Positions 2,867 through 45,459 are shown, numbered from the stretch's first letter. The stretch is 46,833 bases of DNA from Candidatus Heimdallarchaeota archaeon (GCA_046761065.1 JBHIFL010000031.1:1-46833), one strand, 5' to 3'. Notes: a model not told the origin generated them from the sequence alone. A program made the numbers and translations.

Positions 2867-2889
2867 TTAATGTCTATATCAGATACATT
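2867..2889 (-). promoter_or_regulatory. Putative operator (recurrent 15-bp-period motif) upstream of the YPC ATPase unit
   Basis: TTAATGTC-tatatca-GATACATT. Confidence 0.55.
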
Positions 2890-2916
2890 ATAACAATTAA
2901 TGTTTATTAACCTTTG

Positions 2917-2954
2917 GTTCTATCGTATAAAGATATATCAAATAAAGACATAAT
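2917..2954 (+). promoter_or_regulatory. Putative operator, 3 units, upstream of Rieske pseudogene
   Basis: GTTCTATC-gtataaa-GATATATC-aaataaa-GACATAAT, just after TATA-like TTTATTAA. Confidence 0.65.
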
Positions 2955-2982
2955 GCAAAACAAGTTGTTGAGGAGAATGTAG

Positions 2983-3559
2983 ATGACAAAGATCCAGTCA
3001 AGAGAGAATGCGCAACTTCCAACATTCGATTCCATTGCAGAAAAAAGTTCTTCAATTACAAGGAGAATGCTTCTTAAAGCAACCGTTAGAGTATTGGCCC
3101 TCACTCCTTTTGGATTCTTCTTACTGGCAGAGCATCGCACACCTCAGGAATACAGGATAGGTCGGTACATGATTTCCACCCTTCCAGAGAAAAATCAAGC
3201 CACGTTTCTCATTATCGCGCCACCAAAGCCTACATTGGCGAACCCGCCCAATTCATAAATCTGGGGGATCCCGCGCTCAACCTTGAAGGGTATATTGCAT
3301 TCATTGTCCGCTGCACCCATTATGCTTGCGTTGCCTACTACAAGACCCGGGACGAGATTGAACGACTTCGTACAGGCACCGGCTTCAACTTGCCCGGCTG
3401 GACAAAGGATCTTCATGTGCAATCTATTGCGCTTGTCAGGTGGGTGGGTTCTCTCCTCTCGATGGGAGGTTCATCGGTGGTCTGCCACCCAAACCGAGTC
3501 CTGAAATCGAGATTGAATGGGAAAGTGGTAATATCTACGCTACTGAAATAAAGGCTTGA
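2983..3559 (+). pseudogene. Tat-exported Rieske [2Fe-2S] protein, frameshifted
   Basis: N-terminal TRRMLLK twin-arginine signal. Shifted frames give FIVRCTHYAC (box I) and AIYCACQVGGFSPLDGRFIGGLPPKPSPEIEIEWESGNIYA (box II, His lost). At least two frameshifts. Confidence 0.8.
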
Positions 3560-3636
3560 GAGAGAGGACCGATGTAAACAAAAGTGCAATACTAACCTTT
3601 GGCTACATTTTATTTGCTTTTCTGAGGTTTGTTAAA

Positions 3637-3659
3637 AATATGTCTCACAAGGATATATA
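3637..3659 (+). promoter_or_regulatory. Putative operator upstream of ICMT-family pseudogene
   Basis: AATATGTC-tcacaag-GATATATA. Confidence 0.65.
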
Positions 3660-3815
3660 TCTTAAAAATGGTGGGATAAGATGAGAATGACAATCCTCCA
3701 TGTGGTTTAAGTTTACTACAACACGCTAAGCGTCAATAGCTATGGCAGGTCTGATATCATAACTGGCATGGAGCCTCCATTCAAATCCGAGAGATAATGA
3801 AGAACCAGAGGTCGG

Positions 3816-4418
3816 ATGATGTTGAAAACCTATGGCAGATGGGATCTACTGGTCGTCTGGGCTGTTTTACTCGGTCTATTCATAGTCTTTATCCCATTCA
3901 ATAGAAAGAGTCAGAAATGCCCAGCGAGCGTCTATATAGCCTTCGTCACAGCATTGGCCTTCAAAATGTTCGGTATTCCACTCAGCTTGTATATAATGAC
4001 TTGGGTTGTCGGTTTAACGTTACCAGAAGGGATACTTTGGGACCATACTCTACAACAATACGTGAGATATTGGGGAATGTATAAGATCCGCGATGAACCC
4101 AGTTGGAGTTCTCTTCGTAATCCTCGGATGGAAATAGATCCACAAACACTATTGGAGCAAAGAAGAGGGGAAAGGAAGGCTGGTTACGGGCGGATATCTA
4201 CACATACGTCCGCCATCTGCAATACATTGGCTTCCTTTTGCTCACATTGGGGATGCTCATTCACTGGGCAACTATCCCCTTGTTAATTAGTGTGGCCCAT
4301 CCTAGCGCTCCTATATTACCAGTTGGCTAAGAGAGAGGAGAAGGAGATGGAGAATGAGTTTGAAAACGATTACATCAAGTACAAGAGAACCCCTATATTC
4401 ATACCATTTTGGATGTAA
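3816..4418 (+). pseudogene. Isoprenylcysteine carboxyl methyltransferase (ICMT/PEMT)-family membrane protein, disrupted
   Basis: AFVTALAFKMFGIPL matches the intact paralog at 28135 (AFIIALFTEMFGIPL). YVRHLQY and LAKREEKEM lie in other frames, with an internal stop. Confidence 0.8.
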
Positions 4419-5368: not shown

Positions 5369-6523
5369 CTAGGTTATTGCGTTTGATTGAACAGTCCGAA
5401 CGATGAGCTGGGATGCCTCATCTATTTCTTCTTTTGTCGACCAACGCCCTAGACTTAGGCGTAGCGCCCCCAAAGCCTGTTCTCTTGTAAGGCCCATTGC
5501 AAGGAGTACCTTGGAGGGTTCCGTTGATCCGGCGTGACAGGCAGAGCCTGTGGACGCCGCGATTTCAGGGATCTGTCCCAATAGTTCCTCTCCTACAATG
5601 CCTTTGATGCTTATGTTAAGCGTATTAGGCAGTCTCTGTTTAGGATGCCCATTAAGCGTCACCATCTCTTCGCCCAACCCCTCAAGAATATTCTTGTAAA
5701 ACTTGTCCCTCAGGGTCGTGACGCGTCGACCGAACTCGTGGACGGTGCCAGAAGCCAGTTCACAAGCACGACCAAGCCCAACAATGTATGGCACGTTCTC
5801 TGTACCGGCTCGTCTACCCAGCTCCTGTCCCGCTCCATGGATGAGCTTAGAAAGATTGGTCCCGTCTCTGATATATAGGGCACCAATCCCCTTTGGGGCA
5901 TATATCTTATGCCCGGCTATAGTGCACAAGTTCACGTTCAGGTTGTTGGCATGGACTTCAATCTTGCCACACGACTGAGCCACGTCGCTGTGGAAGAGAA
6001 CGCTCTTTTCTTCGGCGATCCGACCTATTTTCTCAATAGGCTCGATGGTTCCTACCTCGTTGTTGGCATGCATTATCGTAATGAGAATTGTCTTGTCCGT
6101 TATCGCTTGCTCCACATCTGAAGGGTTCACCATTCCATACTCGTCTGCAGATAAGTAAGTGGTCTTGAATCCAAACTGTTCTTCGAGATATCGCACTGTT
6201 TCAAGGACGGCGGGGTGCTCAATTCGCGAAGTAATTATGTGTTTTCCCTTTTTCCTGTTGGCGAGCGCCGTTCCGATAATGGCGGAGTTGTTGCTTTCGC
6301 TCCCTCCACTTGTGAAGACGATTTCATTGGATTCTGCGCCGATTAATTGGGCGACCTGTTCTCTTGCCTTATTCACCGCTTCTTTGGCTAATTTTCCGTA
6401 TATGTGGTTGCTTGAGGGGTTTCCAAAATGTTCCTTAAAGTAAGGGAGCATCGTTTCAAGAACTTCTGGGGTGATGGGGGTTGTAGCATTGTAGTCCAAG
6501 TAGATGGGTTTTGTGGGTTTCAT
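5369..6523 (-). CDS. Cysteine desulfurase, NifS/IscS class (aminotransferase class V)
   Basis: YLDYNATTP, FTSGGSES, HANNEVG, AGHKIYAPKG (PLP Lys), STGSACH (catalytic Cys). Confidence 0.95.
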   Translation of the reverse strand: MKPTKPIYLDYNATTPITPEVLETMLPYFKEHFGNPSSNHIYGKLAKEAVNKAREQVAQLIGAESNEIVFTSGGSESNNSAIIGTALANRKKGKHIITSRIEHPAVLETVRYLEEQFGFKTTYLSADEYGMVNPSDVEQAITDKTILITIMHANNEVGTIEPIEKIGRIAEEKSVLFHSDVAQSCGKIEVHANNLNVNLCTIAGHKIYAPKGIGALYIRDGTNLSKLIHGAGQELGRRAGTENVPYIVGLGRACELASGTVHEFGRRVTTLRDKFYKNILEGLGEEMVTLNGHPKQRLPNTLNISIKGIVGEELLGQIPEIAASTGSACHAGSTEPSKVLLAMGLTREQALGALRLSLGRWSTKEEIDEASQLIVRTVQSNAIT

Positions 6524-6925
6524 CTATCCAGACGCCTCATTCGCAAGTAAGATTATCACACATTGATGGAAGATTCCGTAGGATTCCAGCTTTTTAAGCA
6601 ATTCTCTACGCTTGCCTTCACTCTCTAGGATTTCATTCACTATTTGGGACTGCATGTGCCCCTCCTTCAGCTTCACCTTTACAGGTTTGTGCAGCTTCTT
6701 TTCAAGGGCGTACTTGATCATAACACCGATGGCACTACTAAAAGGGCAGAGGGGAGCCGTAAGGTTGTATTCAATTTCCAAGCCTTTGTCGTCTATTATA
6801 ATGTCTTCTTCGTTAACGAGCCCCAGTTCTACAATGGATTTGTCCCGGTAGTCCGGATCGTACACTCTCTTCAAGATTTCAAGCACGTCTTCCTTTCTCA
6901 TGTCTTTCATCCCCTTAGGTATCAT
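6524..6925 (-). CDS. DUF59/SufT (MIP18)-like Fe-S assembly protein
   Basis: LKRVYDP...SIVELGLV...LTAPLCP signature, adjacent to the desulfurase. Confidence 0.8.
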   Translation of the reverse strand: MIPKGMKDMRKEDVLEILKRVYDPDYRDKSIVELGLVNEEDIIIDDKGLEIEYNLTAPLCPFSSAIGVMIKYALEKKLHKPVKVKLKEGHMQSQIVNEILESEGKRRELLKKLESYGIFHQCVIILLANEASG

Positions 6926-7479: not shown

Positions 7480-8220
7480 ACCGATATACCAATACTTCTC
7501 AAAGAGGATCTTGTACCCGTACCATATCTTGCGGACCCATTTGGGGCAGAATTCGAAGGGGCACTGTCATGTGGCTAGCTGCGGTTCCCCGCAAAATTTA
7601 CATATTATCGAATTCACTGGGATCCTTTTATCGCAATTAAAGCAGAAGATGTAATCCCTTCCTATGCTATCGGGAGTTCGAGCAGTTGGTTCTTCAAATA
7701 TGTCCCTTTTGTCGGTTCGATCACCCGTTTGTACAACGGGATATTCGGAACGGACAAGCAACCAGATGATGAAACCAATGACCATTGTAAAAAACACGAG
7801 CACTAGCCAGAGAGCTCCGTTCTGGCCTCGGGCTTCCACATCATGGTAAACCCAGACCGCAAGAAACGTCCCGAAAATGAACCAAGGGATCATCATGAGC
7901 ATGCCAAAGCCCACCCAACCGAATCCAAACATTCCACCCATTCCATGATTCAAATTTACCACCTGATGTTCACTATAGGCCCCCGTTCGGTATAGAAGTT
8001 GTCTCTGACCATGGTGGTCTTACCGAATCCGGTATCAATATCCATGCTTCCTTCTCCTTCCTCATAGTTCCGATTTCAGGAGGAGCGACACCCATAGGTC
8101 AGCCCTCGTATCGGGTCTTTCTGTCAACGAGTATCATCTCATATGTCTTCCCTGACTCTTGCTTAGCAGGTCGGAAGCCACATGACCCCCTATTCCACCG
8201 CCGAATATCAGAACCCTCAT
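7480..8220 (-). pseudogene. Sulfide:quinone oxidoreductase-like flavoprotein remnant, internally deleted and interrupted
   Basis: MRVLIFGGGIGG starts by ATGA overlap with the osmC-like stop. C-terminal pieces DIDTGFGKTTMVRDNFYTERGPIVNI (~7965-8050) and KIWYGYKILFEKYW (~7490-7530) flank the 7567..7962 ORF. Confidence 0.6.
7567..7962 (-). CDS. Membrane protein with C-terminal zinc ribbon
   Basis: Two TM helices (WVYHDVEARG..LW pattern) plus CFNC...CKFCG. Confidence 0.7.
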   Translation of the reverse strand: MVNLNHGMGGMFGFGWVGFGMLMMIPWFIFGTFLAVWVYHDVEARGQNGALWLVLVFFTMVIGFIIWLLVRSEYPVVQTGDRTDKRDIFEEPTARTPDSIGRDYIFCFNCDKRIPVNSIICKFCGEPQLAT

Positions 8221-8759
8221 CCATCCTGCCCCTCTCTTGTTACCTCTACGACCATCTTCACGGGGGTTGATAGGCAAAACACAGCGGGACACCTCGCCTC
8301 AGTGAGCTTCCGTAATTCTTGAATCTTTTCGTCACCAGCGTCTGTGTCTATCACTATCTGGAGTTTCACTTCCTCCACGATAGGATTTTCTGAGATACCC
8401 ATGGTTTTTGAGAAGTCCATATGGCTCTCGACCGTCACACTCATTTTCCTTAGAAGTACTCCCTCAGTGGCTGCGCTGGTGGCAAAGGTCGCGGCGGTGC
8501 ACGATGCTACGCCATAGAGACAGTAGTGCATAGGTCCGGGTCTTGTTCCCTCACCACCGAGAGAGGTGGGTTGATCCGCTTCGAGGGAGAACGTCCCCTT
8601 TTCTGTCTGGATTTCAGCTCGAAATTGAGGGTCTTCTGTGGCATCAAGAAGCCATTCACCCTCGATCCTTGTGATCTTCTTTGCTTCATTCGGATCTCCC
8701 ATCATCTTTTGACCCGTGTCTTCTAATCTATCTAAATTTACCCGATTCACAACATTCAT
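8217..8759 (-). CDS. OsmC-family protein
   Basis: ADQPTSLGGEGTRPGP, ASC...RCP conserved Cys pair. Confidence 0.9.
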   Translation of the reverse strand: MNVVNRVNLDRLEDTGQKMMGDPNEAKKITRIEGEWLLDATEDPQFRAEIQTEKGTFSLEADQPTSLGGEGTRPGPMHYCLYGVASCTAATFATSAATEGVLLRKMSVTVESHMDFSKTMGISENPIVEEVKLQIVIDTDAGDEKIQELRKLTEARCPAVFCLSTPVKMVVEVTREGQDG

Positions 8760-8766: not shown

Positions 8767-9858
8767 TCACTTCCATTCTAATGGTTGCCAAGTTAAACCC
8801 AAGATACTCCCAATGAACATTAAGAGCGAGCCGAGCAGAAATCCCCACATGGTTGGAAAAGCAAGAACTGCAGCTATGAGAACCAAAGTGGCACCTGTCC
8901 GAATCCTATAGGGGTCAGAGCTGTTCATCCATAGAGCCCCAAAAGTTCCTAGCGTTGTCATCACCACCGCAAGAACAGCCCATGGTATGATCCAGCTAGA
9001 GCTCCAGATGAAGGCACCAGACATCCAAGCCCACATCATCCATGGTCCGGGAAGGGGAGTGAAGAACAGCATAGAAGTCATGAAAATTCCTGCTATCACC
9101 TGAAAGGCCACACCTGCAAGAGATAGCGTAAAAGCAGCTACTGGTCTCTCATCGGTGGTAGTCGTCATCGAACTTGGTTCGCGTTTCTTAGAGAGTAAAA
9201 GGGATCCAACTGCAAGTATCATTGCAAGGAACAGAGCTGGTGGCAGAAACGTCCAAGCTCCTAAACCTCCTAAAACATTCGTCGCATTGCTGGGTTCCAT
9301 GTGGGTTGAATCCACTCCATTTACGATGAGTTCTCCATGCATATCTTCATGTCCGACACCGCAGTAAATGGAACAATGAAAATGGACTTCCCCATTTTTG
9401 GTTGCCACAAATTCAATGGTAACCGTTTCACCCACGGGCAACGTATAATTCAACCCATACTCTTCAATTGCAATCCCATGATTGGGGAACATGCGTGCCA
9501 TCATTGGCATCATATTGTTGATGCTGCTTATTGTTAACCTCACGGTATCGTGCTCACTCACAAGAATAGCTGAGGGCTCAAATCTCCAATAGTAAGCCGT
9601 TATGGAAACCTCTTGCACCTTCCTCGTGGGTTCTTCCCAGTCTTCAACTTCTTCGTGATCTTCGTCCTCATCACCCATCATGGAGTCCTCGTCACCCATC
9701 ATGGAGTCCTCACTACTCATCATGCCATGATTGTCTTCGGCCGTCATGGGGCTCCCCCATATAGGGGACCAGGGGCCCATTACCATTGCTCCACCAACAA
9801 TGAGCCCCGCCCCAAGTATGACGGCGAGGGCCAGTACCAATACTTCAGTATCTTTCAA
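8767..9858 (-). CDS. Membrane-anchored CuA-type cupredoxin (COX2/NosZ C-terminal-like) with Met/acidic linker and C-terminal TM bundle
   Basis: HGIAI...CSIYCGVGHEDM matches H...CxxxCxxxHxxM CuA ligands; N-terminal TM; multi-TM C-terminus. Confidence 0.85.
   Translation of the reverse strand: MKDTEVLVLALAVILGAGLIVGGAMVMGPWSPIWGSPMTAEDNHGMMSSEDSMMGDEDSMMGDEDEDHEEVEDWEEPTRKVQEVSITAYYWRFEPSAILVSEHDTVRLTISSINNMMPMMARMFPNHGIAIEEYGLNYTLPVGETVTIEFVATKNGEVHFHCSIYCGVGHEDMHGELIVNGVDSTHMEPSNATNVLGGLGAWTFLPPALFLAMILAVGSLLLSKKREPSSMTTTTDERPVAAFTLSLAGVAFQVIAGIFMTSMLFFTPLPGPWMMWAWMSGAFIWSSSWIIPWAVLAVVMTTLGTFGALWMNSSDPYRIRTGATLVLIAAVLAFPTMWGFLLGSLLMFIGSILGLTWQPLEWK
9664..9726. repeat. 3 x 21-bp intragenic tandem repeat encoding (S/G)MM(GD/SS)ED
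   Basis: gtcctcatcacccatcatgga / gtcctcgtcacccatcatgga / gtcctcactactcatcatgcc. Confidence 0.9.
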
Positions 9859-9872: not shown

Positions 9873-9895
9873 GATATATCTTATAAAGATATGTC
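9873..9895 (-). promoter_or_regulatory. Putative operator upstream of the cupredoxin-osmC-nifS operon
   Basis: GATATATC-ttataaa-GATATGTC, between minus-strand TTTTTATA box and GGTGA RBS. Confidence 0.8.
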
Positions 9896-11654: not shown

Positions 11655-12115
11655 ATGTTTACCTCCATGAATGAATCATCCACGTCAGAGGAGACGATTC
11701 TTGCGACCCTTGATAATGGATGGCCTTTGACCCTCAGTTCCAAAGTGTTGAACCAGCCGAAGGGAGTCCTAGTCACTGTGAAGCCTCGTTGAACCAGACC
11801 TTCTTCGGTACGCTTCAAAGTCGCTAGGGCTATGTCGGGGCTGCTCAGGTCTGCAAAAAGATGGGCAAAGGGATGAAGAACAATCGTGTTAACTTTTAAC
11901 TGGCGGGCCAGTTGAGCTATTTCATCTACGATCTTTTTTGCTATGCTCACGGGGCTAGATTCATCTTGTTTCTCTACACTCGCAAGGATGAGGAGCGCTT
12001 CATCCACTTCGGTGGTCTTAGAGTTGGAGTTGTAGTCCTCAACAAGCTTTGACCTCCTTCCTCTTTTGGTAATGCTGCTACTGAAATGATCAACGTGGAG
12101 CATTAATACTCGCAC
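11645..12115 (-). CDS. Free-standing archaeal-type threonyl-tRNA synthetase editing domain protein
   Basis: MRVLMLHVD, SVEKQD, HPFAHL, TPFGW, KGHPLS motifs; no catalytic domain. Confidence 0.88.
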   Translation of the reverse strand: MRVLMLHVDHFSSSITKRGRRSKLVEDYNSNSKTTEVDEALLILASVEKQDESSPVSIAKKIVDEIAQLARQLKVNTIVLHPFAHLFADLSSPDIALATLKRTEEGLVQRGFTVTRTPFGWFNTLELRVKGHPLSRVARIVSSDVDDSFMEVNIWD

Positions 12116-12116
12116 C

Positions 12117-12458
12117 CTATCTCACCACCGCCTCTTTGGCCAGTTTTTCCATCTCAGCCATCTGTTCAAACAAGACTTCCCTTATAAGGTCGCAGGCCTC
12201 GACCATTTTCGGATGTGCAATTTTATAGAAAATGTTAGTCCCCTCCTTCTTGGTGGAAACGACCCTCCTTTGCCTTAACACCGCGAGGTGTTGGGAGATG
12301 GTGGCTTGCCGGACACCTGTGAGGGCGGTTAACTCACTTACAGATCTCTCGCCCTCCCGAAGCAAACTCAAAATCTCTAACCTTGTGGGATTCGCGAGGG
12401 TCTTACAAAGCTCAGCGTGCAATTTGAAAATCTTTTTATCAATTTGAGCATTGCTCAT
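12117..12458 (-). CDS. ArsR/SmtB-family transcriptional regulator
   Basis: KTLANPTRLEIL, SVSEL, ISQHLAVLR. Start reassigned to ATG 12458. Confidence 0.92.
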   Translation of the reverse strand: MSNAQIDKKIFKLHAELCKTLANPTRLEILSLLREGERSVSELTALTGVRQATISQHLAVLRQRRVVSTKKEGTNIFYKIAHPKMVEACDLIREVLFEQMAEMEKLAKEAVVR

Positions 12459-12494
12459 GGAAGTATCCCACATCGCATTAATTGCATTATTAGT

Positions 12495-12506
12495 ATATTC
12501 GAATAT
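12495..12506. promoter_or_regulatory. Perfect 12-bp palindrome upstream of ArsR, candidate autoregulatory site
   Basis: ATATTCGAATAT. Confidence 0.4.
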
Positions 12507-12629
12507 TATTAAGTGTTTTGTTGTTTCAAAACCATGTGTTCTAAATGGTGGAGGCCACATCCATTAAACGTCCCTTTACGTCCCCGAGACCTTCTGATCT
12601 CCTCTCTCTTCGCCAGGTTTCGCGTCTAA

Positions 12630-16851: not shown

Positions 16852-18117
16852 TTATTGAGTAAGCATTACCTTTTGGGAACGGCGTCTGAATCCCTGCACA
16901 ATCTGTTGGAGTCCGCCCAACGAGTAGAAATACCTTATCTCGGTTAAAATCTTAAAGAACTTTCCAATCTTTCCAAGCAGCCGAACACTCCCCAATAGTG
17001 AGGCTCCTTCTTTTCTCCCTAGAGATATCGCGACCCCGCGGCGGCTAGGTTTGTACTCGCGCGTTCGTAACTTGCGTATCCTTGCAATCAAATGTTCGGC
17101 CACATAGGTTGCTTCATTGATGGCCATTTGTGCTGAGGGAATCACTGGCCGTCCAGTCTCAGGATCTATTTCGATTGAGGCGTCACCAATCACATACACA
17201 CCCTCATATCCCTCCGCTTCGAGGAATTGGTTGACTTTAGCCCTCCCTTGGTGATTTACGCGGAGCCCAGATCGTTCAATCAGTTCATTCCCTCTGATGC
17301 CTCCGGTCCAGACAAGAGTACGTGCATGGATTCTCTTGCCGTTGCTCAAAACGATTGTCTGTTTGTCAACGGATTGGATAGCGGCACCAAGGATAAGTTT
17401 GATTCCCTTCTCCTTTAAGATCTGATATGCATATCTCACCAAGGGCTGGTCGATACCCATCGTTTCCAGCGCTTCCACTGCAATAATTCGAATGTCGTCT
17501 TGATGGACACCATATCGCTCCTTAAGTTCTCTTATCCAGTCGGCCAGTTCCGTGACAAACTGCGTGCCCGCCGCTCCCACACCTCCTACGACAAACGTCA
17601 AGAGTTCTTTTCTCTTCTTGGCGTCTCGTTCCTGAACCGCTAACTCAAACATCACTAGGACATGAGTTCTAATCGCTTTCGCATTTTCGAGAGACCTCAG
17701 TGGGAATGCGGATTCCACTAGGCCGGGGATATTATAAAAGTTGGTTCTTCCTCCTAAGGCAATAATTAGAAAGTCATAAGAAATTCTACTTCCACTTACA
17801 AGGACAAATTTCTTCTCAAGATCTATCTCAGAGATTTTTGCCCGATGGAAGGTTATGTTCTTATTTCGAAAAATTTGTTCTAGCGGTATTTGGACTGCTT
17901 TGGGACTGATTCTACTGGTGGCAGCTTCATGAAGGTTCGGAATAAGTAAGTGATAGGCTTTCTCGTCGATGACGACGATATCGAGTTCTCCCCTCTGACT
18001 CAGTTCCTCTAGGGTTAGCGCCGTCCGAACTCCAGCCACGCCTGCTCCCAAGATTAATATCTTAGGTACGCTCTTTCCTGGGACTGGCTTGGTTGATTCA
18101 CTGTGATGTCTTATCAT
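16852..18117 (-). CDS. ndh: Type II NADH dehydrogenase (NDH-2)-family flavoprotein
   Basis: ILILGAGVAG, YDFLIIALG, VVGGVGAAG, WTGG, IGD, PSAQMA; start after GGAGG RBS. Confidence 0.85.
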   Translation of the reverse strand: MIRHHSESTKPVPGKSVPKILILGAGVAGVRTALTLEELSQRGELDIVVIDEKAYHLLIPNLHEAATSRISPKAVQIPLEQIFRNKNITFHRAKISEIDLEKKFVLVSGSRISYDFLIIALGGRTNFYNIPGLVESAFPLRSLENAKAIRTHVLVMFELAVQERDAKKRKELLTFVVGGVGAAGTQFVTELADWIRELKERYGVHQDDIRIIAVEALETMGIDQPLVRYAYQILKEKGIKLILGAAIQSVDKQTIVLSNGKRIHARTLVWTGGIRGNELIERSGLRVNHQGRAKVNQFLEAEGYEGVYVIGDASIEIDPETGRPVIPSAQMAINEATYVAEHLIARIRKLRTREYKPSRRGVAISLGRKEGASLLGSVRLLGKIGKFFKILTEIRYFYSLGGLQQIVQGFRRRSQKVMLTQ

Positions 18118-18167
18118 GTTCACAATCCTCCAAGTTTTGATCAAATTCAACATCATTTTCTTATAAG

Positions 18168-18190
18168 GATATATCTATATATGATATATC
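18168..18190 (-). promoter_or_regulatory. Putative operator (perfect consensus) upstream of ndh
   Basis: GATATATC-tatatat-GATATATC, downstream of minus-strand TTTTAAA. Confidence 0.8.
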
Positions 18191-20054: not shown

Positions 20055-20092
20055 ATTATATCTATAATAGATATGTCTATTATCGATCTATA
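20055..20092 (+). promoter_or_regulatory. Putative operator, 3 units, upstream of YHS-CBS-nuoD
   Basis: ATTATATC-tataata-GATATGTC-tattatc-GATCTATA after CTTAAAAA. Confidence 0.75.
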
Positions 20093-28134: not shown

Positions 28135-28788
28135 ATGACAATGGACGACTACGCCTATGGAAATTGGTTTGCCGTAGTAGTTAGCATCGGAATTTTTTCA
28201 ATCTTCATTCTGAGCTTCTTTGCTCCCTTTAAAAAGCGTGATTGGCGCTCAGCGGGCTTATATGAGGCTTTCATCATCGCATTGTTTACCGAGATGTTTG
28301 GTATTCCCTTAACGATCTATATGTTATCTTCTATCTTTGGAGCACAGCTATCGTTTGGACACATAGAAGGCCATCTCTTGGCAACCGCATTAACCTGCTT
28401 TGGGTTCAAAATGGAATCCATGTGGTTGCTTGTAATGGTGCTAAGCTCTCTGGTCATAATGATCGGGTTTGGCTTGATGGCACGGGGTTGGCGACTCATT
28501 CATCAGACCAAAGGTAAACTTGTCACTACGGGAGTCTATGCATATGTCCGCCATCCCCAATATCTGGGGCTTCTACTGATCACGAGTGGCTTCTTGGTAC
28601 AATGGCCCACATTAATTACATTAGCTATGTGGCCCTTTCTCGCTTTAATGTACTATCGGTTAGCCCAACAAGAAGAGCATGCCTTAGATTCCGTTTTTGA
28701 ATCGAAATACCGAGAATATAAACAGAACACTCCAGGCTTTTTCCCACATCTTACCCGTTTCAACCCAAGGAGTGCTAGTTCCAAATAA
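28135..28788 (+). CDS. Isoprenylcysteine carboxyl methyltransferase-family membrane protein
   Basis: LVTTGVYAYVRHPQY, QWPT, QEE, TPGFFP. Confidence 0.9.
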   Translation: MTMDDYAYGNWFAVVVSIGIFSIFILSFFAPFKKRDWRSAGLYEAFIIALFTEMFGIPLTIYMLSSIFGAQLSFGHIEGHLLATALTCFGFKMESMWLLVMVLSSLVIMIGFGLMARGWRLIHQTKGKLVTTGVYAYVRHPQYLGLLLITSGFLVQWPTLITLAMWPFLALMYYRLAQQEEHALDSVFESKYREYKQNTPGFFPHLTRFNPRSASSK

Positions 28789-28800
28789 TTGCTCCGAGGT

Positions 28801-29061
28801 ATGGGTTCTATGAGTTCCCCTATTAACTTTGAAATAATAATGGCTAAACTACCTCCATCGGCGCAAAAAATCTATCTACTCCTTGCAGCTGAGGAAAACG
28901 GATTAACCACCAAGGAAATAGTGAGACGTGTGACCTTTACAAGTCGAACTGTACGGTACGCTCTCAAGAAGCTCTTAGCAATGGGGCTTATCCAGAGATC
29001 CCCCTACTTACTGGACATGCGCCAATTCAAATATCGAATCTCTAAAGTTGAAACAAGATAA
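28801..29061 (+). CDS. Small archaeal winged-helix DNA-binding protein
   Basis: LPPSAQKIY...RTVRYALKKL...DMRQ. Confidence 0.8.
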   Translation: MGSMSSPINFEIIMAKLPPSAQKIYLLLAAEENGLTTKEIVRRVTFTSRTVRYALKKLLAMGLIQRSPYLLDMRQFKYRISKVETR

Positions 29062-29171: not shown

Positions 29172-29208
29172 TATATGTCTATATGGATATATCTATATTT
29201 GATATATA
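29172..29208 (+). promoter_or_regulatory. Putative operator upstream of htpX
   Basis: TATATGTC-tatatg-GATATATC-tatattt-GATATATA (first spacer 6 bp), overlapping TTTTTATA. Confidence 0.78.
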
Positions 29209-29287: not shown

Positions 29288-30193
29288 GTGGGGTTTGGAA
29301 AAACGATGATGAGGACGACCATTCTTTTTATGGCTCTCTTCCTTGTCTTTTATGCGATTACGCTTGTGTTCGACCTTCTCTGGTATTGGGCGCTGCTTTT
29401 TATGAGCCTTATTGTGTTCATAAGCTATTGGACCTCTGATCGGATTGTCCGGCGAATGGCAGGTGCGCGGCTTGTCACCGAAGCCGAGGCTCCTGAATTA
29501 CATGCCATTGTTGATAGTTTGGCCCAAAAAGCGGGCCTTCCCAAGCCACGAGTAGCTATCGTAGATAATCCCGTCCCAAACGCCTTCGCAACGGGACGAT
29601 CGCCTAAAAAGGCCGTCATTGCCGTTCATACTGGATTATTGAACGCTTTAAATCAAGAAGAACTCGAAGGTGTTATTAGTCACGAATTAACACATGTTCG
29701 GAACTGGGATACCTTAATCATGGCAATCGCCGCAGTTGTTGCGGGGACGATTGCATTCGTGGCTCGAATGGCCTTTTGGTTCTCCTTAAGCTCGCGGGAT
29801 TCCCGCAGTCGCACCTCTCCTTATGCGGTGATTATTGCATGGCTTTTAGCTCCAATTGCGGCTCTCTTGATTCAACTGGCGATTTCACGGGGACGGGAAT
29901 ATGCCGCCGATCGGGGTGGAGCTGAACTCACAGGTCGACCGATAGCCTTGGCGAATGCCTTAGAAAAGATCCATTTATATAAACAAAAACGTCCATTGAC
30001 TGTGGAAAAAGCCAATCCTGCAATAGCTCACCTCTATATCATTAACCCGTTTCGAAGTCAGGGGCTCGTTGGATTGTTTTCGACACACCCCTCCTTGGAA
30101 GATCGAATCAAGCGGTTAGAAGCAATGAAAGGCCTCAAATTTGCTCGAAGGCCTAGGGAACTACGCCCAGAGGACTTTACCATTGTTTCCTGA
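29288..30193 (+). CDS. htpX: Membrane zinc metalloprotease HtpX (M48)
   Basis: PNAFATGR, HELTH, SRGREYAAD, FSTHP. Confidence 0.95.
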   Translation: MGFGKTMMRTTILFMALFLVFYAITLVFDLLWYWALLFMSLIVFISYWTSDRIVRRMAGARLVTEAEAPELHAIVDSLAQKAGLPKPRVAIVDNPVPNAFATGRSPKKAVIAVHTGLLNALNQEELEGVISHELTHVRNWDTLIMAIAAVVAGTIAFVARMAFWFSLSSRDSRSRTSPYAVIIAWLLAPIAALLIQLAISRGREYAADRGGAELTGRPIALANALEKIHLYKQKRPLTVEKANPAIAHLYIINPFRSQGLVGLFSTHPSLEDRIKRLEAMKGLKFARRPRELRPEDFTIVS

Positions 30194-30397: not shown

Positions 30398-30420
30398 ATT
30401 ATCTCTAAATAAGATATATC
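30398..30420 (+). promoter_or_regulatory. Putative operator upstream of copA
   Basis: ATTATCTC-taaataa-GATATATC after CTTAAAA. Confidence 0.65.
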
Positions 30421-30456
30421 TATGATGACTATATTACTCTTGAGGAGGACTACAAA

Positions 30457-32958
30457 TTGACACAAAAAAAGAAAGTCTCTTTGTTAATTCAAGGGATGCA
30501 CTGCGCGTCCTGTGCAGTGAACATCCAAAAGGAGCTCTCCAAGCAAAGTGGAGTGGTCGAAGCAAATGTAAACTTTGCCACAGAAAAAGCCACCGTCATG
30601 TACGACCCTGATATCACAGCGCCTACAGACCTTATTAACGCGGTTCATGACAGCGGATATGAAGCGGTTGTCGAGAAGGTAACGATTCCTATTGGTGGAA
30701 TGACCTGCGCCTCATGTGCGGCAACAGTCGAAAAAGCCCTAACCAAAGTAGATGGAGTTGTCAACGTCAACGTCAATTTTGCCACTGAGAAAGCAACTGT
30801 TAAATTCGTGCCTTCTGCAATTGGGATTAGGGACTTGAGGAAGGCGGTCGAGGCGGCTGGATATCAAGCGCTCGAAGTGGTCGAGGGAGATGGCGTTGAG
30901 GACAGAGAGCGAAAGGCTCGTCTTAAGGAGATCCAGTATCTTAAGACGCGGTTTATTGTTGGTGCTCTTCTCTCGATGTTGATCTTTGGGGGGAGTTTTC
31001 CTGAGTGGGTTCCGATCCTCCGCTCTCTTGAGATTGCCGATCAAACCCGCTTTTTTGGATTGCTGATCCTTACTACGCCGGTTCAGTTTTGGGTTGGGTG
31101 GCGGTTTTACACCGGGACGTATGCCGCGTTTAAACGCAAGTCGGCGGACATGAACGTCCTGATCGCGATCGGAACTACCGCAGCGTATCTATATAGTCTG
31201 GCTGCGACGTTCTTTCCCGTGTTTTTTACGTCCTCAGGTTTAGTTCCTGAAGTTTATTTCGATACTGCCGCAATAATCATCACACTGATCGTGCTAGGGA
31301 GACTGCTTGAAGCGAGAGCGAAAGGCCAGACTTCTGAGGCGATCAAGAAGTTGATGGGGCTACAAGCAAAGACAGCTCGCGTAGTCCGGGATGGTGAAGC
31401 GATCGACATCCCTATTGAGGAAGTTCAAGTCGGAGATCTCGTCGTGGTGCGCCCGGGGGAGAAAATCCCTGTTGATGGCCTGATAAAAGAGGGCTACTCC
31501 ACCGTTGACCAGTCGATGATTACCGGAGAAAGCATTCCTGTCGAGAAAAAGGAGGGGGATGAGGTCATCGGGGCCACGATCAACAAAACAGGTATGTTCA
31601 AGTTTGAAGCCACAAAGGTGGGGAAAGACACTGCGCTTGCGCAAATAATTAAGCTAGTCGAAGATGCTCAAGGATCGAAAGCCCCCATTCAGCGTCTAGC
31701 GGACACAGTGGCGGGGATTTTCGTTCCTGCCGTGATCATTATTGCGGTTGCCACCTTCGCCGTTTGGTACTTTTTTGGCCCGACCCCTGCATTCACCTTC
31801 GCCATGTTGAACTTTGTTGCCGTGTTGATCATTGCCTGCCCCTGTGCACTGGGGTTAGCTACTCCAACGGCCATAATGGTTGGCACGGGAAAGGGAGCTG
31901 AAAACGGGGTGCTTATCCGGGGTGGGGAAAGTTTGGAGACCGCCCACAAGATTAACACCATCATATTCGATAAGACTGGGACCCTCACACGAGGTGAACC
32001 GGCAGTTACTGACATTGCACCTGCAACGGGGTTTTCAAGCGATGAAGTTTTGCTATTAGCTGCGATCGTGGAGAAGGGTTCAGAACATCCACTAGGAGAA
32101 GCCATTGTCCATCACGCTAAAGAAAGGAAACTTCAGCTCGAAGACTCAGAAGAGTTCGCCGCAGTTCCTGGCCACGGCGTACGAGCTAAAGCCAAAGGTA
32201 GAGAAGTTGTTCTAGGCAATGCTCGATTGATGAGGAAGGAACACATAGACATCAGAGACTTGGAAACCATCGCTGTGGCATTCTCGGAGGATGGGAAGAC
32301 CCCCATGTACATCGGGGTCGATGGGATTGCTGCAGGAGTTATCGCCGTGGCAGACACCCTCAAACCGAATTCTTTGGGAGCTGTTGCGGAATTGCATAAG
32401 TTAGGGGTTGAAGTGGTTATGATCACGGGAGATAACGAGAGGACTGCGAAGGCTATCGCAAGACAGGTTGGTATTGACCGGGTTCTTTCCGAGGTTCTTC
32501 CAGACGATAAGGCAAAGGAAGTGAAAGCCCTTCAAGACGAGGGCAAGATCGTGGCGATGGTCGGCGATGGAATCAACGATGCACCCGCTCTAGCTCAGGC
32601 GGATGTGGGAGTTGCGATCGGAACAGGGACGGATGTTGCAATGGAAGCTTCGGATATCACTTTGATCACCGGGGACTTACAGGGAGTAGTCACTGCGATT
32701 CAGTTGAGCAAGAAAACGATGCGAACTATCAAACAAAATCTTTTCTGGGCCTTTGGGTACAATACTGCGTTTATTCCGATTGCAGCGGGGATTTTGTACC
32801 CGTTTCTCGGCATTTTGCTCAATCCGATCTTTGCGGCGGTGGCGATGGCTGCTAGCTCGGTGTCGGTAGTCTCGAACTCGTTGCGGCTCCGGAGGTTCTC
32901 CCTTCCCCGACTGGCGCCGAAGGGTTCACCCACGATTAGCAAATCAGTGCCCACCTAG
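30457..32958 (+). CDS. copA: Cu(I)-exporting P1B-1 ATPase
   Basis: Two GMxCASC HMA domains, CPC, DKTGT, YN (TM7), MAASS (TM8). Confidence 0.96.
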
Positions 32959-32974: not shown

Positions 32975-33739
32975 GTGTTTCTAATGAGTGTGCCTAGGCA
33001 TACCTTTCTAAAGTTTGGATTGATAGCTGTGTGGGGTGTCCTGACTTCGATATTCTATCGAGGCGCCCGGAAAGAGACAAGACCGAGTGCGATGGCACCC
33101 GCGACAAGAAGATGGGGCATGCTCATTGATTTGAGTCGCTGTGATGGGTGTGGTGCTTGTATTGAGGCGTGCCACGCTTACCACTTTATTCCAGAAGGCC
33201 AAGAGTGGATCAAGATCTACCGACTAAAAGATAACCCAGATCTACCCGTATATTTTTTTGTTCGACCCTGCATGCACTGCGAGAACCCGCCCTGTGTGAA
33301 GGTCTGTCCAGTGAATGCAACATATCGCCGAGCGGATGGAATCACCTTGATTGACAATATTCGTTGTATTGGGTGCCGAATGTGCATGGCCGCGTGCCCC
33401 TATGGGGAACGGTATTTCACGTGGCGAGATCCCCCACCCCTGCCACCGGCGGTGCAGGCGAGCGGGTACTCCCCTGAGTGGGGGTATCCGCACCAGAAAG
33501 GAACCGTTGCCAAATGTGATTTTTGTCCTGACATGGCGTAACTAGGCCGCCTTCCCCCATGCGTCGTGGCGTGTCCGACCGGGGCGATCTTTTATGGAGA
33601 TCTTAACGAAGATGCGATCTCAAATGGCCGCGAACTTCGCAGATTCTCAGAGACCGTAGCAAAGGAAAGTGCGTACAGATATCGAGAGGACCTAGGCACG
33701 TATCCACGTGTCTATTATCTTCTGGCACGTAAAAAATAG
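32975..33739 (+). pseudogene. NrfC/DmsB-type 4x[4Fe-4S] protein with a premature stop at 33539
   Basis: CDGCGAC, CMHCENPPCVKVCP, CIGCRMCMAACP, KCDFC, TAA, then in-frame PPCVVACPTGAIFYGDL...GTYPRVYY. Confidence 0.88.
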
Positions 33740-40617: not shown

Positions 40618-41148
40618 TTACTCTAGGATGGGAAATTTCTGCACGAGGTTTGTATTAGCCCACCAGTCCCCAAAACCCAGCCAGTGTCCTGCTTTTGTTC
40701 TTGTTAGGCCTAGCAAGATGACTAGATACAGAATGTGGTCATCCAAGATAGGATTGTGCTCGGGCGGCAGAGCTGCTAGATACATCAGAAACACTAGTAA
40801 CGCTCCACCATAGCCAGCGATTCTTACTCCGATCCCTAGTATTAGGGTCAGTCCTAGCAAAAGAAGGCTCAGCATAAATACCAAATCAACCAGAAAATTC
40901 CCAGCAAGCCTTTGAAAAACCGGGACCAAGGGCCCACGGGTAGCAAATAGCAAAAATCCGGTAGTTGGGGAGCCTCCTGCGATCCATGCCTGCTCGGATG
41001 GAATAGCAAACCCGAGTCCAAATAATTTATCAACAAACGCCCATAAGAACAGCCAGCCCATTCCTAGTCTTAGGAAAGCCCAAATATATTGAGTCGGGGT
41101 GTACGTGTGACCCAACAATATTGTTTTTTTCTCGTCCGATGTCGCCAT
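40618..41148 (-). CDS. DoxX/DoxD (TQO small subunit)-family membrane protein
   Basis: LRLGMGWLFLWAFVDKLFG, GGSPT.GFL, NP.LDDH; start after GGAG RBS. Confidence 0.85.
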   Translation of the reverse strand: MATSDEKKTILLGHTYTPTQYIWAFLRLGMGWLFLWAFVDKLFGLGFAIPSEQAWIAGGSPTTGFLLFATRGPLVPVFQRLAGNFLVDLVFMLSLLLLGLTLILGIGVRIAGYGGALLVFLMYLAALPPEHNPILDDHILYLVILLGLTRTKAGHWLGFGDWWANTNLVQKFPILE

Positions 41149-41161: not shown

Positions 41162-41199
41162 TTTATGTCACTTACAAATATATTATTTAAAGACATATA
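41162..41199 (-). promoter_or_regulatory. Putative operator, 3 units, upstream of doxX
   Basis: TTTATGTC-acttaca-AATATATT-atttaaa-GACATATA. Confidence 0.6.
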
Positions 41200-41627: not shown

Positions 41628-41777
41628 TTAGGTATGATGCATGTATTTCATGGGATCGCTGTCAAATTTCTCCTTGCACCCACTCGAACAAAAATAGAAA
41701 GTCTTCCCCATATGTTCAGACTTGAATTCAGTTTTGTTTTCATCTACAGTCATTCCACAAACTGGATCTGTCGCCAT
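41628..41777 (-). CDS. YHS/TRASH-domain metallochaperone, 49 aa (not in ORF track)
   Basis: MATDPVCGMTV...KTFYFCSSGCKEKFDSDPMKY. Confidence 0.92.
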   Translation of the reverse strand: MATDPVCGMTVDENKTEFKSEHMGKTFYFCSSGCKEKFDSDPMKYMHHT

Positions 41778-41835: not shown

Positions 41836-41858
41836 TATGTATCTATTTCGGATATGTC
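41836..41858 (-). promoter_or_regulatory. Putative operator upstream of the third YHS gene
   Basis: TATGTATC-tatttcg-GATATGTC. Confidence 0.65.
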
Positions 41859-41900: not shown

Positions 41901-41938
41901 AGTATGTCTGAAGAAGACATATCGATTTCTGATATGGA
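41901..41938. promoter_or_regulatory. Putative operator, 3 units, with no intact downstream plus-strand gene
   Basis: AGTATGTC-tgaagaa-GACATATC-gatttct-GATATGGA after TATAAAA. Confidence 0.65.
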
Positions 41939-42530: not shown

Positions 42531-43292
42531 TTAGCGAACTTTCGCCTTCTTGTAGAAAGCAGCTGTAGCGAAGCCCCAAACTATCAAGAGATAGGAAATC
42601 GCCAAGAACAAGTACGATACGGTGTCGAAGATTCGGGTGAAGGAAGCATCCATGAGGATCTTTGTCGTACTATATCCTGGCAACACTTTCATCCAGAGGG
42701 GGGGAGTGACGCTAGTGAACGTGAGCAGTGGAAATGAAACGAGTCCAAAATCCAGCATGGGTAGCGAGAACATTAGCCATGCTCCTCCAGTTTTCTCGGT
42801 GAAGTTACCGACCAGCACACCGATGCTGCCGTATATGAACGCGCTGAGAAAGATTGATAAAGAAAAGAGTGGAATATTGACAGGGGTAAAGCCTTCTAGC
42901 GTCACGCCCACGGAAACAACGGTCACTAACAACGTCACCAGTGCGAGAGTTGAGAGTCTTGACACAATGATCTCTGATGGCTTGTAGCCTGCTAGGACTA
43001 GTCTTCTATCAGCGTCTTTCGAGCTCAGCATCATGAAAACGCCAGCGAGGCCTGCAAGGAATGTTGCAGTGATTGGGGCCATGATGGCCCCATGAAACTC
43101 AGGCATGGATAATTGGAGGACTGATTCGACTCCGTTTTCCGTTGTCTCGTACAGAATTTGTCCGCGGGGAGTTATGCGAAAGGAGGCGGTGATGAATAGG
43201 AATGGGAGCACTATCAGGAAAACCAATGCCAGCTTGTTCCTGAAGTACTCTTTGCTGTTCAAGAGGAAGGCTGTTCGAATTCTTGTCGCCAT
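42531..43292 (-). CDS. ABC-2-type transporter permease
   Basis: Six-TM profile; SKDADRRLVLAGY shared with the neighbouring permease. Confidence 0.85.
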   Translation of the reverse strand: MATRIRTAFLLNSKEYFRNKLALVFLIVLPFLFITASFRITPRGQILYETTENGVESVLQLSMPEFHGAIMAPITATFLAGLAGVFMMLSSKDADRRLVLAGYKPSEIIVSRLSTLALVTLLVTVVSVGVTLEGFTPVNIPLFSLSIFLSAFIYGSIGVLVGNFTEKTGGAWLMFSLPMLDFGLVSFPLLTFTSVTPPLWMKVLPGYSTTKILMDASFTRIFDTVSYLFLAISYLLIVWGFATAAFYKKAKVR

Positions 43293-43305
43293 CGCTATTC
43301 CCTTC

Positions 43306-44031
43306 CTAGTGTATCTTTGTTGCTTTGTAGAACACCATGGCTGCTGCGATCCAGCTGACACCCAGATAAGCTATGGAGAGCATCATGTCCCCACCGTTCC
43401 AGGTTCCAAAGAGCGCGGCGTCTTGGAGGACACGAGTGGGGTAGTGCAACGGCAACCAACTGAGCCACGCCTCACCTCCAGCAACTGAGCTGGTGCCGAG
43501 AAACGCATCGAACATGAATATAAAAATCACAGCGAAGGATCCTTCGAACTCTTGACCAATGAGGGAACCTACAGTTATGCCTACACTCCCGTAAATCATT
43601 GCTGAAACGTACAAAGCGGAGAAAGTGATCGGCAGATTCCGCGGCTCGAAATAGAGAAACAAAGTCGCAAAGCTGATTGAGGTAGCGAGAAGCCCGATGA
43701 AAATCGTGGCAAAGATCCTGGAAAACACCACTTCACTTGACCTGTAGCCTGCTAGTATGAGTCTTCTGTCCGCGTCTTTGGAACTTAGGATCATGGATAG
43801 GCCTAATATCCCGGTGAGGATAGCTGCACTCCACTGTGCTGAAACAACCCTCCCCAGATTTCTGACGAATATTGCCACAAACTGTTCGGGCAGTCTGCGC
43901 ATAGCTGAGTCGAAACCAGTGATGAATAAGAAGGGAATCAGTACCAATAGGATGATATTAGTCTTGTTTCTTAGATACTCCTTGCTATCCATCCAGAAAG
44001 CTTTCCGAAACTTCCTGATGTTGGTTTTCAT
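43306..44031 (-). CDS. ABC-2-type transporter permease
   Basis: Six-TM profile; SKDADRRLILAGY. Confidence 0.85.
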   Translation of the reverse strand: MKTNIRKFRKAFWMDSKEYLRNKTNIILLVLIPFLFITGFDSAMRRLPEQFVAIFVRNLGRVVSAQWSAAILTGILGLSMILSSKDADRRLILAGYRSSEVVFSRIFATIFIGLLATSISFATLFLYFEPRNLPITFSALYVSAMIYGSVGITVGSLIGQEFEGSFAVIFIFMFDAFLGTSSVAGGEAWLSWLPLHYPTRVLQDAALFGTWNGGDMMLSIAYLGVSWIAAAMVFYKATKIH

Positions 44032-44656
44032 GAATAATTTTTCCACCTACCAGCTCGTAGATCTTGTCGAATTTCTCCCTCTCATACAAAAAGTGGGAAA
44101 TTATGAGGACGCTCTTTCCACGATTTCTTACAATGTCCTCTGTTAGCTTCCAAAACTCAAGGTAAGTCCCGTAGTCGAAACCAGTATAGGGCTCATCCAG
44201 CAAGAGCAAGTCAGGATCATGCATCAGCGCTATACTCAAGTTGAGCTTTTGCTTTGTTCCCTCACTGAGTCTTTCTACGAGAAAATTCCGGTATTTTTCG
44301 AAGTTCAGGACCTTGAGGTACTTTTCCATAGCTTTTCTAGTTGTGTCCCGTGTTAGGCTGTAGGCTTCTCCAAAGAAGAGGAAGGTCTCTTCCACTGTCA
44401 GCTTCTCAAACAGGACTATTTCTTGGGGACAATACCCGATCTTTCCATTTCGCTCAACTACACCTGAATCTGGCTTCAAGATGCCAGCCATGATCTTCAG
44501 GAGAGTGGATTTTCCAGAGCCATTTTCTCCAACAAGTCCAACTATTTCTCCAAGTTCAATATGGAGAGAAGCGTCCTTGAGCACTTGAAGACGTTTTCCG
44601 AAGGGGTTCAGCTTCGAACCGAAGGATTTGCACACGTTCTTCACAGAGACAATCAA
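43985..44656 (-). CDS. ABC transporter ATP-binding protein
   Basis: GENGSGKST Walker A, LSEGTKQ signature, LLLLDEP Walker B. Confidence 0.93.
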   Translation of the reverse strand: MIVSVKNVCKSFGSKLNPFGKRLQVLKDASLHIELGEIVGLVGENGSGKSTLLKIMAGILKPDSGVVERNGKIGYCPQEIVLFEKLTVEETFLFFGEAYSLTRDTTRKAMEKYLKVLNFEKYRNFLVERLSEGTKQKLNLSIALMHDPDLLLLDEPYTGFDYGTYLEFWKLTEDIVRNRGKSVLIISHFLYEREKFDKIYELVGGKIIHENQHQEVSESFLDG

Positions 44657-44813
44657 AGTTCATCACATCCTGCTTTCAATCTCAAGTTACGCGTCGCAGA
44701 AGTCTGCCCTGAACCCCCATTATTAAGGGCTTTTTAAAGGTCTCTCGTTCCATCTTTGTTCTTCTCTTGTATTCTTCCAAGAATAGCACTTGTTTTCTTA
44801 TTTCAGATGCTTC

Positions 44814-45417
44814 CTAGCGAGTGCCAACGTATCCAAGAGTTTGAGGATCAGTAATAATGACGGGAGGATAGGAATAGTCTTGAAACCCTTCCATGGGACT
44901 TTCCCTATTAATTGGTAGCACTAGAAACCTTTCTAAATCATGATTGGTTCTTTCAAGTTGTTTCATGTATGCAAGATCTGAATTGGGCTTCAGGGTTTCA
45001 ACACATAAAGAGTAGACTTCCTCGTCGAACCCGATGGGCATCCCGAGTTCACGTACGAGATCTTTTGAATTTTTTTAGCGAGGATTGTCATGCCTTTCCT
45101 CAGAGCCTTCGGAAGCTGGTTTGCGTAGTGGTAAAGGATTGTCTTTTTTTCCTAGAAATAAGATGGTTCTTGAAGTGCCCTGCCCTCTTTTTCTTGTTCA
45201 TCGAAGTAACGTTCAAACGTTCTGGTAAGGTCTCGAGCATCAATTGTTAGGGGAGGAGCTACTGTCGACCCTAGAGGTGAATTCTCTTCTACTTTGAGAT
45301 AGAAATCGTTATCTAGTTTCTCAAGGGAGTTAGGAGATTTTCCAACGCACGACTCTTGTCTTTTTGTCATGGCGCCCATCATTCTCATCTCAGTTTTTGG
45401 GTAAGCGATGTTCGCCA
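44814..45417 (-). pseudogene. Disrupted hypothetical gene upstream of the ABC operon
   Basis: Consecutive minus-strand ORF pieces (45152..45417, 44814..45041) below an operator; family not recognised. Confidence 0.35.
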
Positions 45418-45436
45418 TTATTTCATTACTTATCAA

Positions 45437-45459
45437 GATATATCTTTATGTGATATTTT
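45437..45459 (-). promoter_or_regulatory. Putative operator upstream of the hypothetical/ABC genes
   Basis: GATATATC-tttatgt-GATATTTT. Confidence 0.65.

Follow-up and report, generated by a model that had tools for sequence, protein, structure and literature searches.

An inverted repeat recurring through an Asgard archaeal copper-gene island is the probable operator of PadR-TRASH regulators

Operator-like sites head copper-related gene units

We analysed a 46,833-nucleotide stretch of DNA from a Candidatus Heimdallarchaeota archaeon (GCA_046761065.1 JBHIFL010000031.1:1-46833), here called the window, which is contig C31 of a 4.42-Mb assembly in 234 contigs. About 13 gene units in the window, as annotated with Pfam, are headed by copies of a short AT-rich inverted repeat, and one of these units encodes a protein in which a PadR-type winged helix is joined to a TRASH domain. 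The repeat is probably the operator of this protein and its paralogues. The host genome is Asgard, and the PadR-TRASH homologues carry the name Heimdallarchaeota. The sites, with their position weight matrix (PWM) scores, and the candidate regulator are given below; C30 is a second contig of the same assembly.

2867-2889: weak operator-like dyad (13.1 bits), one good half-site (ATGTATC) and one partial, 340 bp upstream of a YPC-type P1B ATPase gene (106-2526, minus strand)
2917-2954: three-unit array (21.5 and 23.1 bits), before a Tat-signal Rieske-like gene (2983-3556, plus strand); paralogous to C30:4299
3637-3659: operator (17.3 bits), before the gene of an ICMT-like membrane protein (3816-4286, plus strand) that is 30% identical to the island ICMT
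9873-9895: perfect operator (0 mismatches, 27.7 bits), before genes for a CuA-like cupredoxin (8767-9858, minus strand) and OsmC (8217-8759, minus strand), assigned with Pfam and NCBIfam
18168-18190: perfect palindromic operator (0 mismatches, 28.1 bits), before an NDH-2/SQR-like flavoprotein gene (16852-18156, minus strand)
20055-20092: three-unit array (23.1 and 20.9 bits), before YHS (20124-20270), CBS (20313-20918) and NuoD-like (20990-22093) genes, all plus strand, assigned with Pfam
23115-23573, minus strand: PadR-TRASH candidate regulator, 152 amino acids; the open frame runs up to 23657
24014-24036: perfect operator (0 mismatches, 26.5 bits), heading a YHS gene (23730-23873, minus strand), the PadR-TRASH gene and a CueP gene (22458-22940, minus strand), assigned with Pfam
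27812-27834: operator (25.0 bits), before genes for a DUF2933-like protein (27887-28132), ICMT (28135-28788) and an Lrs14/MarR-like winged helix-turn-helix (wHTH) protein (28789-29061), all plus strand, assigned with Pfam
29172-29208: operator, an N6 unit at 29172 and then the canonical dyad at 29186 (26.0 bits), before htpX (29288-30193, plus strand)
30398-30435: operator with a degenerate third unit (21.7 bits), before genes for CopA (30457-32958, plus strand) and a 4Fe-4S protein/ferredoxin (32975-33541, plus strand)
41162-41199: operator (23.0 bits at 41177, 14.6 at 41162), before the gene of a DoxD/DoxX-like membrane protein (40618-41148, minus strand)
41836-41858: operator (17.1 bits), before the third YHS gene (41628-41777, minus strand; YHS E=2.8e-19)
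41901-41938: weaker dyad pair (8.0 and 5.9 bits) with a perfect core, ATGTC-N7-GACAT, upstream of the YHS gene at 41628-41777
45437-45459: operator (22.6 bits), heading two small open reading frames (ORFs) and an ABC exporter operon (45436 down to 42531, minus strand), with a DDE transposase on its other side

We searched for GATATRTC-N7-GATATRTC with up to three mismatches, using dinucleotide shuffles as background. The window contains 35 strand matches, compared with a mean of 0.91 and a maximum of 4 in the shuffles. At up to two mismatches there are 29 positions in the whole assembly, 12 of them in the window and seven on C30, and the three perfect matches in the assembly all lie in the window. 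To avoid circularity, a PWM was trained on eight sites that are all outside the window; its best scores genome-wide are the window sites, ten positions (nine loci) of which reach 20 bits or more. No untrained contig anywhere in the genome and no shuffled window reached that score. At 14 bits or more the window has 16 hits, every one of them intergenic (9.9 kb, GC 0.40), against a mean of 0.055 in dinucleotide shuffles of these intergenic segments. Thus, the recurrent motif reported in the first-pass annotation is real, and the equivalent hit frequency in shuffled AT-rich intergenic DNA that would have spoken against it is not seen.

Most of the 14 sites listed in that annotation are also recovered by the PWM. 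The exceptions are the element at 29172, an N6 unit next to the canonical dyad at 29186, and that at 41901, which scores only 8 bits. Ten loci are strong by PWM, and those at 3637, 41836, 41162 and 2867 are moderate to weak. The downstream genes are copper-centred, as had been proposed: they encode a CPC-type P1B ATPase, three YHS proteins, CueP, a CuA-like cupredoxin, the DUF2933-like/ICMT pair, HtpX and the ABC exporter. Scores stay below 5 bits at the promoters that had been described as free of the motif (mer operon, lipoate cluster, IS110 element and the two ArsR units) and at the other regions scored with them.

The window is half of a larger island

The genome-wide scan had been suggested together with the motif, and it places the strongest sites on C31 and C30, with others near copper genes on C14 and C64 and one on C4. 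We took the top 22 hits of a refined PWM across the 4.4-Mb genome; the counts are 13 for C31, seven for C30, and one each for C14, C64 and C4. The site at C14:12630 is flanked on one side by a YHS gene and on the other by a Met/Gly-rich gene that is followed by a CopA paralogue, and that at C64:22146 is directly upstream of a PadR-TRASH paralogue. On C30, paralogous units that each have a site encode CueP, PadR-TRASH, YHS, a Rieske-like protein, DUF2933-ICMT, an ABC transporter with PadR-TRASH, and a Met/Gly-rich protein with an ATPase. The strongest sites gather on the three contigs that bear PadR-TRASH genes (C31, C30 and C64), plus one beside YHS and CopA genes on C14, and the predicted regulon would extend to C30, C14 and C64. 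For the strong hit at C4:73298 (18.6-23.1 bits), no copper gene is evident in the vicinity; a 564-amino-acid ORF begins 223 bp downstream.

A contig from a near-identical Heimdallarchaeota metagenome-assembled genome (MAG; contig L061) fuses position ~53 of C30 directly to position ~45494 of the window. Judged by this join, which concerns window positions 45494-46833 and C30:1-6900, C31 and C30 together form a single island, at least 64 kb long, that was split in our assembly at the DDE transposase at the contig end. We rejected the same contig as a phylogenetic footprint, because its intergenic DNA is ~97-100% identical to that of the window and so provides no independent evidence. The sequencing runs listed for the window DNA are four hydrothermal-vent DNA runs from one study, with no RNA run among them. 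Separately, segments of the cysteine desulfurase and ArsR genes in the window (5838-6615 and 11970-12585) are 89-94% identical to adjacent segments at C14:16062-17440, beside a 79%-identical CopA gene, which indicates that copper loci have recently exchanged DNA or that strains were binned together.

The site is an inverted repeat with fixed spacing

The motif had originally been described as an 8-bp near-palindrome repeated with a 15-bp period, with the dyad ATRTC-N7-GAYAT as an equivalent form. Arrays of this kind exist, at 2917/2932, 20055/20070, C30:4299/4314 and C30:13260/13275, and in each a central full palindrome, GATATATC, is common to two overlapping dyads. Of the two forms, the dyad describes the site better. 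Of 18 gene-oriented sites, 17 keep the inner C (position 8) and G (position 16) and only 11 the outer G and C; the information content falls from 1.35 bits at the inner to 0.37 at the outer positions. Because the inner pair is so much better conserved, the functional unit is best read from the alignment as the inverted repeat ATATRTC-N7-GAYATAT, 21-23 bases long with an AT-rich spacer. The spacing is strict: a count of ATRTC-Nn-GAYAT over the 64-kb island gives 13 occurrences for n=7, against 0-3 for each other n from 0 to 24, and the same scan of the genome outside the island is flat, with no peak at any n. Binding of each 8-mer palindrome on its own was considered and rejected, since a PadR dimer would need half-sites further apart and conservation is much lower at the outer than at the inner positions.

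The recurrence could in principle reflect no regulator at all, if a promoter variant had spread by segmental duplication or the motif were a small mobile repeat. The TATA-like spacers and the IS110 and DDE elements in the island are compatible with such an origin, and two pairs of sites are clearly paralogous promoters (2917 with C30:4299, and 9873 with C30:4065). These pairs are the exceptions, however, as 16 of the 18 sites have unrelated flanks (median identity over the 18, 0.33), which argues that the motif is not merely a copied promoter or mobile repeat. The strict N7 spacing with dyad symmetry, the absence of the motif from other island promoters and, as described below, its retention beside PadR-TRASH genes in distant phyla also speak against such an origin. 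We consider an origin of this type scarcely credible.

The island encodes PadR-TRASH proteins

The candidate regulator matches the PadR family PF03551 over residues 48-116 (49.8 bits, cut-off 27), as its homologues also do, and the TRASH family PF24273 (28.7 bits, cut-off 27). Pfam detects no Lrp/AsnC domain and no penicillinase-repressor wHTH in the protein, and no NCBIfam model reaches its cut-off. Among 38 homologues the cysteines of a C-x2-C-x-C...CC-x2-C pattern are kept, five of them invariantly and the third in at least 90%, and the LVYPFL segment of the winged-helix domain is invariant. An AlphaFold2 model (predicted local distance difference test score, 81) has helices at 23-41, 46-57 and 63-75, a beta wing and a long helix at 98-119, which is the architecture of the PadR-s2 subfamily, followed by a small beta-rich cysteine domain of two beta hairpins and a helix that corresponds to the TRASH tail. 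The top Foldseek matches in the PDB are Rv3488, LmrR and DNA-bound Bacillus subtilis PadR, with target TM-scores of up to 0.85.

The genome encodes four PadR-TRASH paralogues, one each on C31 and C64 and two on C30. One of the C30 copies (C30:3121-3552, locus L010) is interrupted by in-frame TGA and TAA codons and is possibly a pseudogene; in a related MAG the corresponding gene is called as a 131-amino-acid protein. Our literature searches for PadR combined with TRASH returned irrelevant papers and no description of PadR-TRASH regulators. A Halobacterium PadR protein is induced by Cu/Ni and has no deletion phenotype, but its domain make-up is not stated (PMC6978704).

The dyad accompanies PadR-TRASH genes across archaea

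Relatives of the PadR-TRASH protein occur in at least 252 species genomes of the collection that we searched, among Asgard archaea, Bathyarchaeia, Brockarchaeota and Methanomethylicia. We surveyed 80 other archaeal species genomes, mostly Bathyarchaeia, for a site of at least 14 bits within 260 bp upstream of the regulator gene. Such a site was present in 47 of the 80, compared with five of 1,440 control windows. Two relatives from the same phylum give a more detailed view. In the closed 2.76-Mb genome of Ca. Atabeyarchaeum deiterrae (G023) the only sites with 0-1 mismatches lie between the PadR-TRASH gene and a divergent TRASH-fused ATPase gene, and, 4 kb from there, ahead of a methyltransferase-ATPase pair. 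In Ca. Borrarchaeum weybense (G040) sites occur immediately ahead of the regulator gene and also in the interval that separates CopA from a TRASH protein. A further closed Asgard genome (G037, 3.58 Mb) has a single site with 0-1 mismatches, adjoined by a two-mismatch dyad, and it again separates PadR-TRASH from a divergent TRASH-ATPase gene. At two loci from further assemblies the dyad is immediately upstream of the regulator and of copA. This linkage across archaea marks the PadR-TRASH protein as the likely binder of the dyad.

The binder might instead be another island regulator, either the 90-amino-acid Lrs14/MarR-like wHTH protein (28789-29061) or ArsR, with PadR-TRASH merely a member of the regulon. 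The small wHTH protein is indeed encoded in an operator-headed operon and has four paralogues in the genome (at 28789-29061 in the window, where it ends the DUF2933-ICMT operon, and at C30:6001-6261, C4:65161-65406 and C32:16973-17200). However, none of the 80 genomes has a homologue of it inside the 3-kb neighbourhood of PadR-TRASH, and we disfavour it as the binder for this reason. The ArsR operons lack the motif, and minimal loci in G023, G037 and one further case (L063) consist of PadR-TRASH, an ATPase and the dyad alone. Control by another island regulator therefore seems very unlikely.

The same neighbourhoods bear on the identity of the signal. Within 3 kb of the regulator, CopA-type ATPases are found at 29 of the 80 loci, YHS proteins at 24, ICMT at eight and HtpX at three. 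A response to something else than copper, for example to Ag(I), Zn(II), Cd(II) or oxidation of the thiols in the cysteine cluster, would fit the zinc-ribbon-like fold of TRASH, the redox and protein-quality-control genes in the regulon, and the bound ligand, presumably cadmium, with which the PadR protein Rv3488 was crystallized (5zi8). However, the core partners across genomes are the CopA-type ATPases and YHS proteins, and the window combines a CPC ATPase, CueP and a cupredoxin with mercury and ArsR units that have no site. On this evidence we regard a signal other than copper as quite improbable.

Promoter geometry and a proposed mechanism

Archaeal repressors usually occupy the interval between the TATA box and the start site. 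In most of the window promoters, TATA-like octamers are 0-9 nucleotides upstream of the first unit or overlap it, and ribosome-binding sites resembling GGAGG or GGTG follow the array. At the 9873 site, for instance, TTTATATA is found 7 nucleotides upstream of the operator on the gene strand, and GGTG precedes a TTG start. In many other archaea a purine-rich stretch and ATATAAAT overlap the left arm of the dyad, with the start codon ~10-40 nucleotides further on.

This arrangement also bears on whether PadR-TRASH could bind the dyad as a copper-dependent activator or dual regulator, as CopR does in Pyrococcus furiosus. CopR, an archaeal TRASH regulator, activates from sites upstream of the TFB recognition element (BRE) (PMC7830388), and in one class of Bathyarchaeia loci, taken in the direction of the regulator gene, the dyad precedes a TATA-like box by ~8 bp. 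The box in this class can, however, be read as the TATA box of the divergent gene, which would put the site downstream of it, and in the window and at most other loci the dyad overlaps the TATA-like box or lies between it and the start codon. PadR-family proteins in the cited literature repress (PMC5050560). An activating or dual role is therefore unlikely.

We consider it likely that the dyad is the operator of the island PadR-TRASH regulators, that the bound dimer represses the ~13 units of the window and ~20 in the genome, and that Cu(I), and possibly Ag(I), releases it. Binding, the sign of regulation and the metal are what we infer here, beyond the enrichment, spacing, intergenic placement and PadR-TRASH linkage described above. 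A PadR-type dimer would sit on the two inner half-sites across the AT-rich spacer. Because the dyad at most promoters overlaps or closely follows the TATA-like box and precedes the ribosome-binding site, the dimer would cover the interval from TATA box to start site and block TBP/TFB or RNA polymerase. Binding of Cu(I), possibly also Ag(I), to the conserved TRASH cysteines would then cause the protein to leave the DNA, by analogy with CopY and with the role of TRASH in CopR (PMC7830388). De-repression would supply copper ATPases, YHS chaperones, CueP, the cupredoxin, the ICMT cassettes, the ABC exporter, HtpX, redox proteins and the regulator itself.

Several observations weigh against this proposal. 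No strong site precedes the regulator in 33 of the 80 other genomes. Between the regulator gene of the window and its nearest site there are ~440 bp and a YHS gene, which makes autoregulation there dependent on co-transcription. Adjacent dyads in the three-unit arrays share an 8-mer, and two dimers are thus probably not accommodated on one array at once. Our TATA assignments were made by eye on promoters in which the operator is itself TATA-like. Finally, the four paralogues may differ in metal or target preference.

Genes behind the operators

Several of the operator-headed genes have distinctive features. In the P1B ATPase encoded at 106-2526 on the minus strand, YPC replaces the CPC transmembrane motif, and HMA-type CxxC motifs are present at both ends. 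The 340-nucleotide gap between the start of this gene and the weak site (2527-2866) contains no convincing ORF and no Rfam match, and it folds no better than shuffled sequence (z = +1.9); an Rfam scan of the whole window also matched no family. The CopA protein encoded at 30457-32958 has the CPC motif, DKTGT and two HMA domains, and GGAGG stands ahead of its start codon. The DoxD match of the 40618-41148 product is weak; its ATG, with AAGGAG, is downstream of the operator. The ABC exporter operon encodes an ABC_tran protein and two ABC2 membrane proteins and has a paralogous ABC operon on C30 with a site at 10008, and the paralogous C30 cassette of the DUF2933-ICMT unit likewise has a site.

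The Tat-signal gene at 2983-3556 has weak Rieske similarity. Its counterpart on C30 encodes 192 amino acids, and in the window the same gene is spread over three reading frames, which reflects frameshifts in a pseudogene or else a fault in the assembly. Part of the gene is found again at 25753-26034, abutting the IS110 element.

For some of these genes the genome has a second copy, and the operator is found only on the island copy. The second htpX (C27:35964-36874) is 92.7% identical to the island gene (29288-30193) in amino acids and ~90% in nucleotides, and it has no site. DNA similarity between the two extends exactly from start codon to stop, and the promoters are unrelated. Because the similarity begins at the start codon while the promoters differ, the comparison points to recruitment of the island htpX by promoter replacement. 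Paralogues of the NDH-2-like gene on C35 (69% identical), of nuoD on C52 (85%) and of the Rieske-like gene on C34 also lack a site. The bin has an estimated contamination of 8%, so some of these non-island 'paralogues' could belong to a co-binned strain.

It is possible, although we put this forward only tentatively, that the four paralogues and ~20 operators, some of them three-unit, make up a graded copper stimulon. Such a stimulon would reach beyond efflux, with spare, copper-dedicated copies of HtpX and of NDH-2-like, NuoD, Rieske, CuA cupredoxin and DoxD-like proteins recruited by promoter replacement, and metal stress might in this way remodel the respiratory membrane through an undescribed family of archaeal sensors.

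To our knowledge, the Lrp-TRASH proteins of the CopR type are the only characterized archaeal copper sensors, and the PadR-TRASH proteins point to a second, widespread family. Because the family has a sharply defined operator, its regulons should be predictable from sequence in uncultured lineages. The vent-derived island is an unusually large instance, with ~20 operators, ~40 genes, four regulator paralogues, strict 15-bp arrays and recruited duplicates of housekeeping genes, and it suggests that functions other than efflux, namely HtpX, ICMT and redox proteins, are deployed against copper.

Comparison with known systems

A parallel in regulatory logic is CopY of Enterococcus hirae and Lactococcus, a small winged-helix repressor with a C-terminal cysteine cluster that is encoded together with a chaperone and ATPases and that leaves a palindromic, promoter-overlapping operator when it binds Cu(I). 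CopY is a bacterial protein of the BlaI/MecI family, with a CxCxxxxCxC hook and a TACAnnTGTA box. The logic proposed for the present system is alike, but the protein family and the motif differ, as the PadR-TRASH protein has no BlaI-type Pfam match and the dyad is not a TACAnnTGTA box.

The PadR-TRASH protein shares with CopR/CopT (P. furiosus PF0739, Thermococcus onnurineus CopR and Saccharolobus CopR) a C-terminal TRASH sensor, a gene adjoining copA and a TRASH/YHS chaperone, and, as predicted here, copper-responsive control of a regulon of several promoters (PMC7830388). CopR differs in having an Lrp/AsnC-type helix-turn-helix, in forming octamers that wrap DNA and in activating from TTNNCAWWWTGNNAA upstream of the BRE (PMC7830388), whereas the protein described here has a PadR winged helix and, as its probable operator, an ATATRTC-N7-GAYATAT dyad at or downstream of the TATA box. 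The remark at first reading that the motif was not recognized from archaeal CopR systems is borne out by this difference.

The fold is that of PadR-s2 proteins (LmrR, Rv3488 and cdPadR1) and of B. subtilis PadR, a PadR-s1 protein, with 34% winged-helix identity to DNA-bound B. subtilis PadR. Described PadR operators are ATGT-N8/10-ACAT and TACT-N11-12-AGTA, the latter with a required AT-rich spacer (PMC5050560), and the operator proposed here is built likewise, its inverted half-sites being centred ~12 bp from each other with AT-rich DNA in between. Known PadR members sense phenolic acids or drugs through the dimer interface, or their ligand is not known, and we found none described with a TRASH domain. 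The PadR-TRASH system would appear to work in the manner of CopY- and CopR-type copper control while belonging to neither family.

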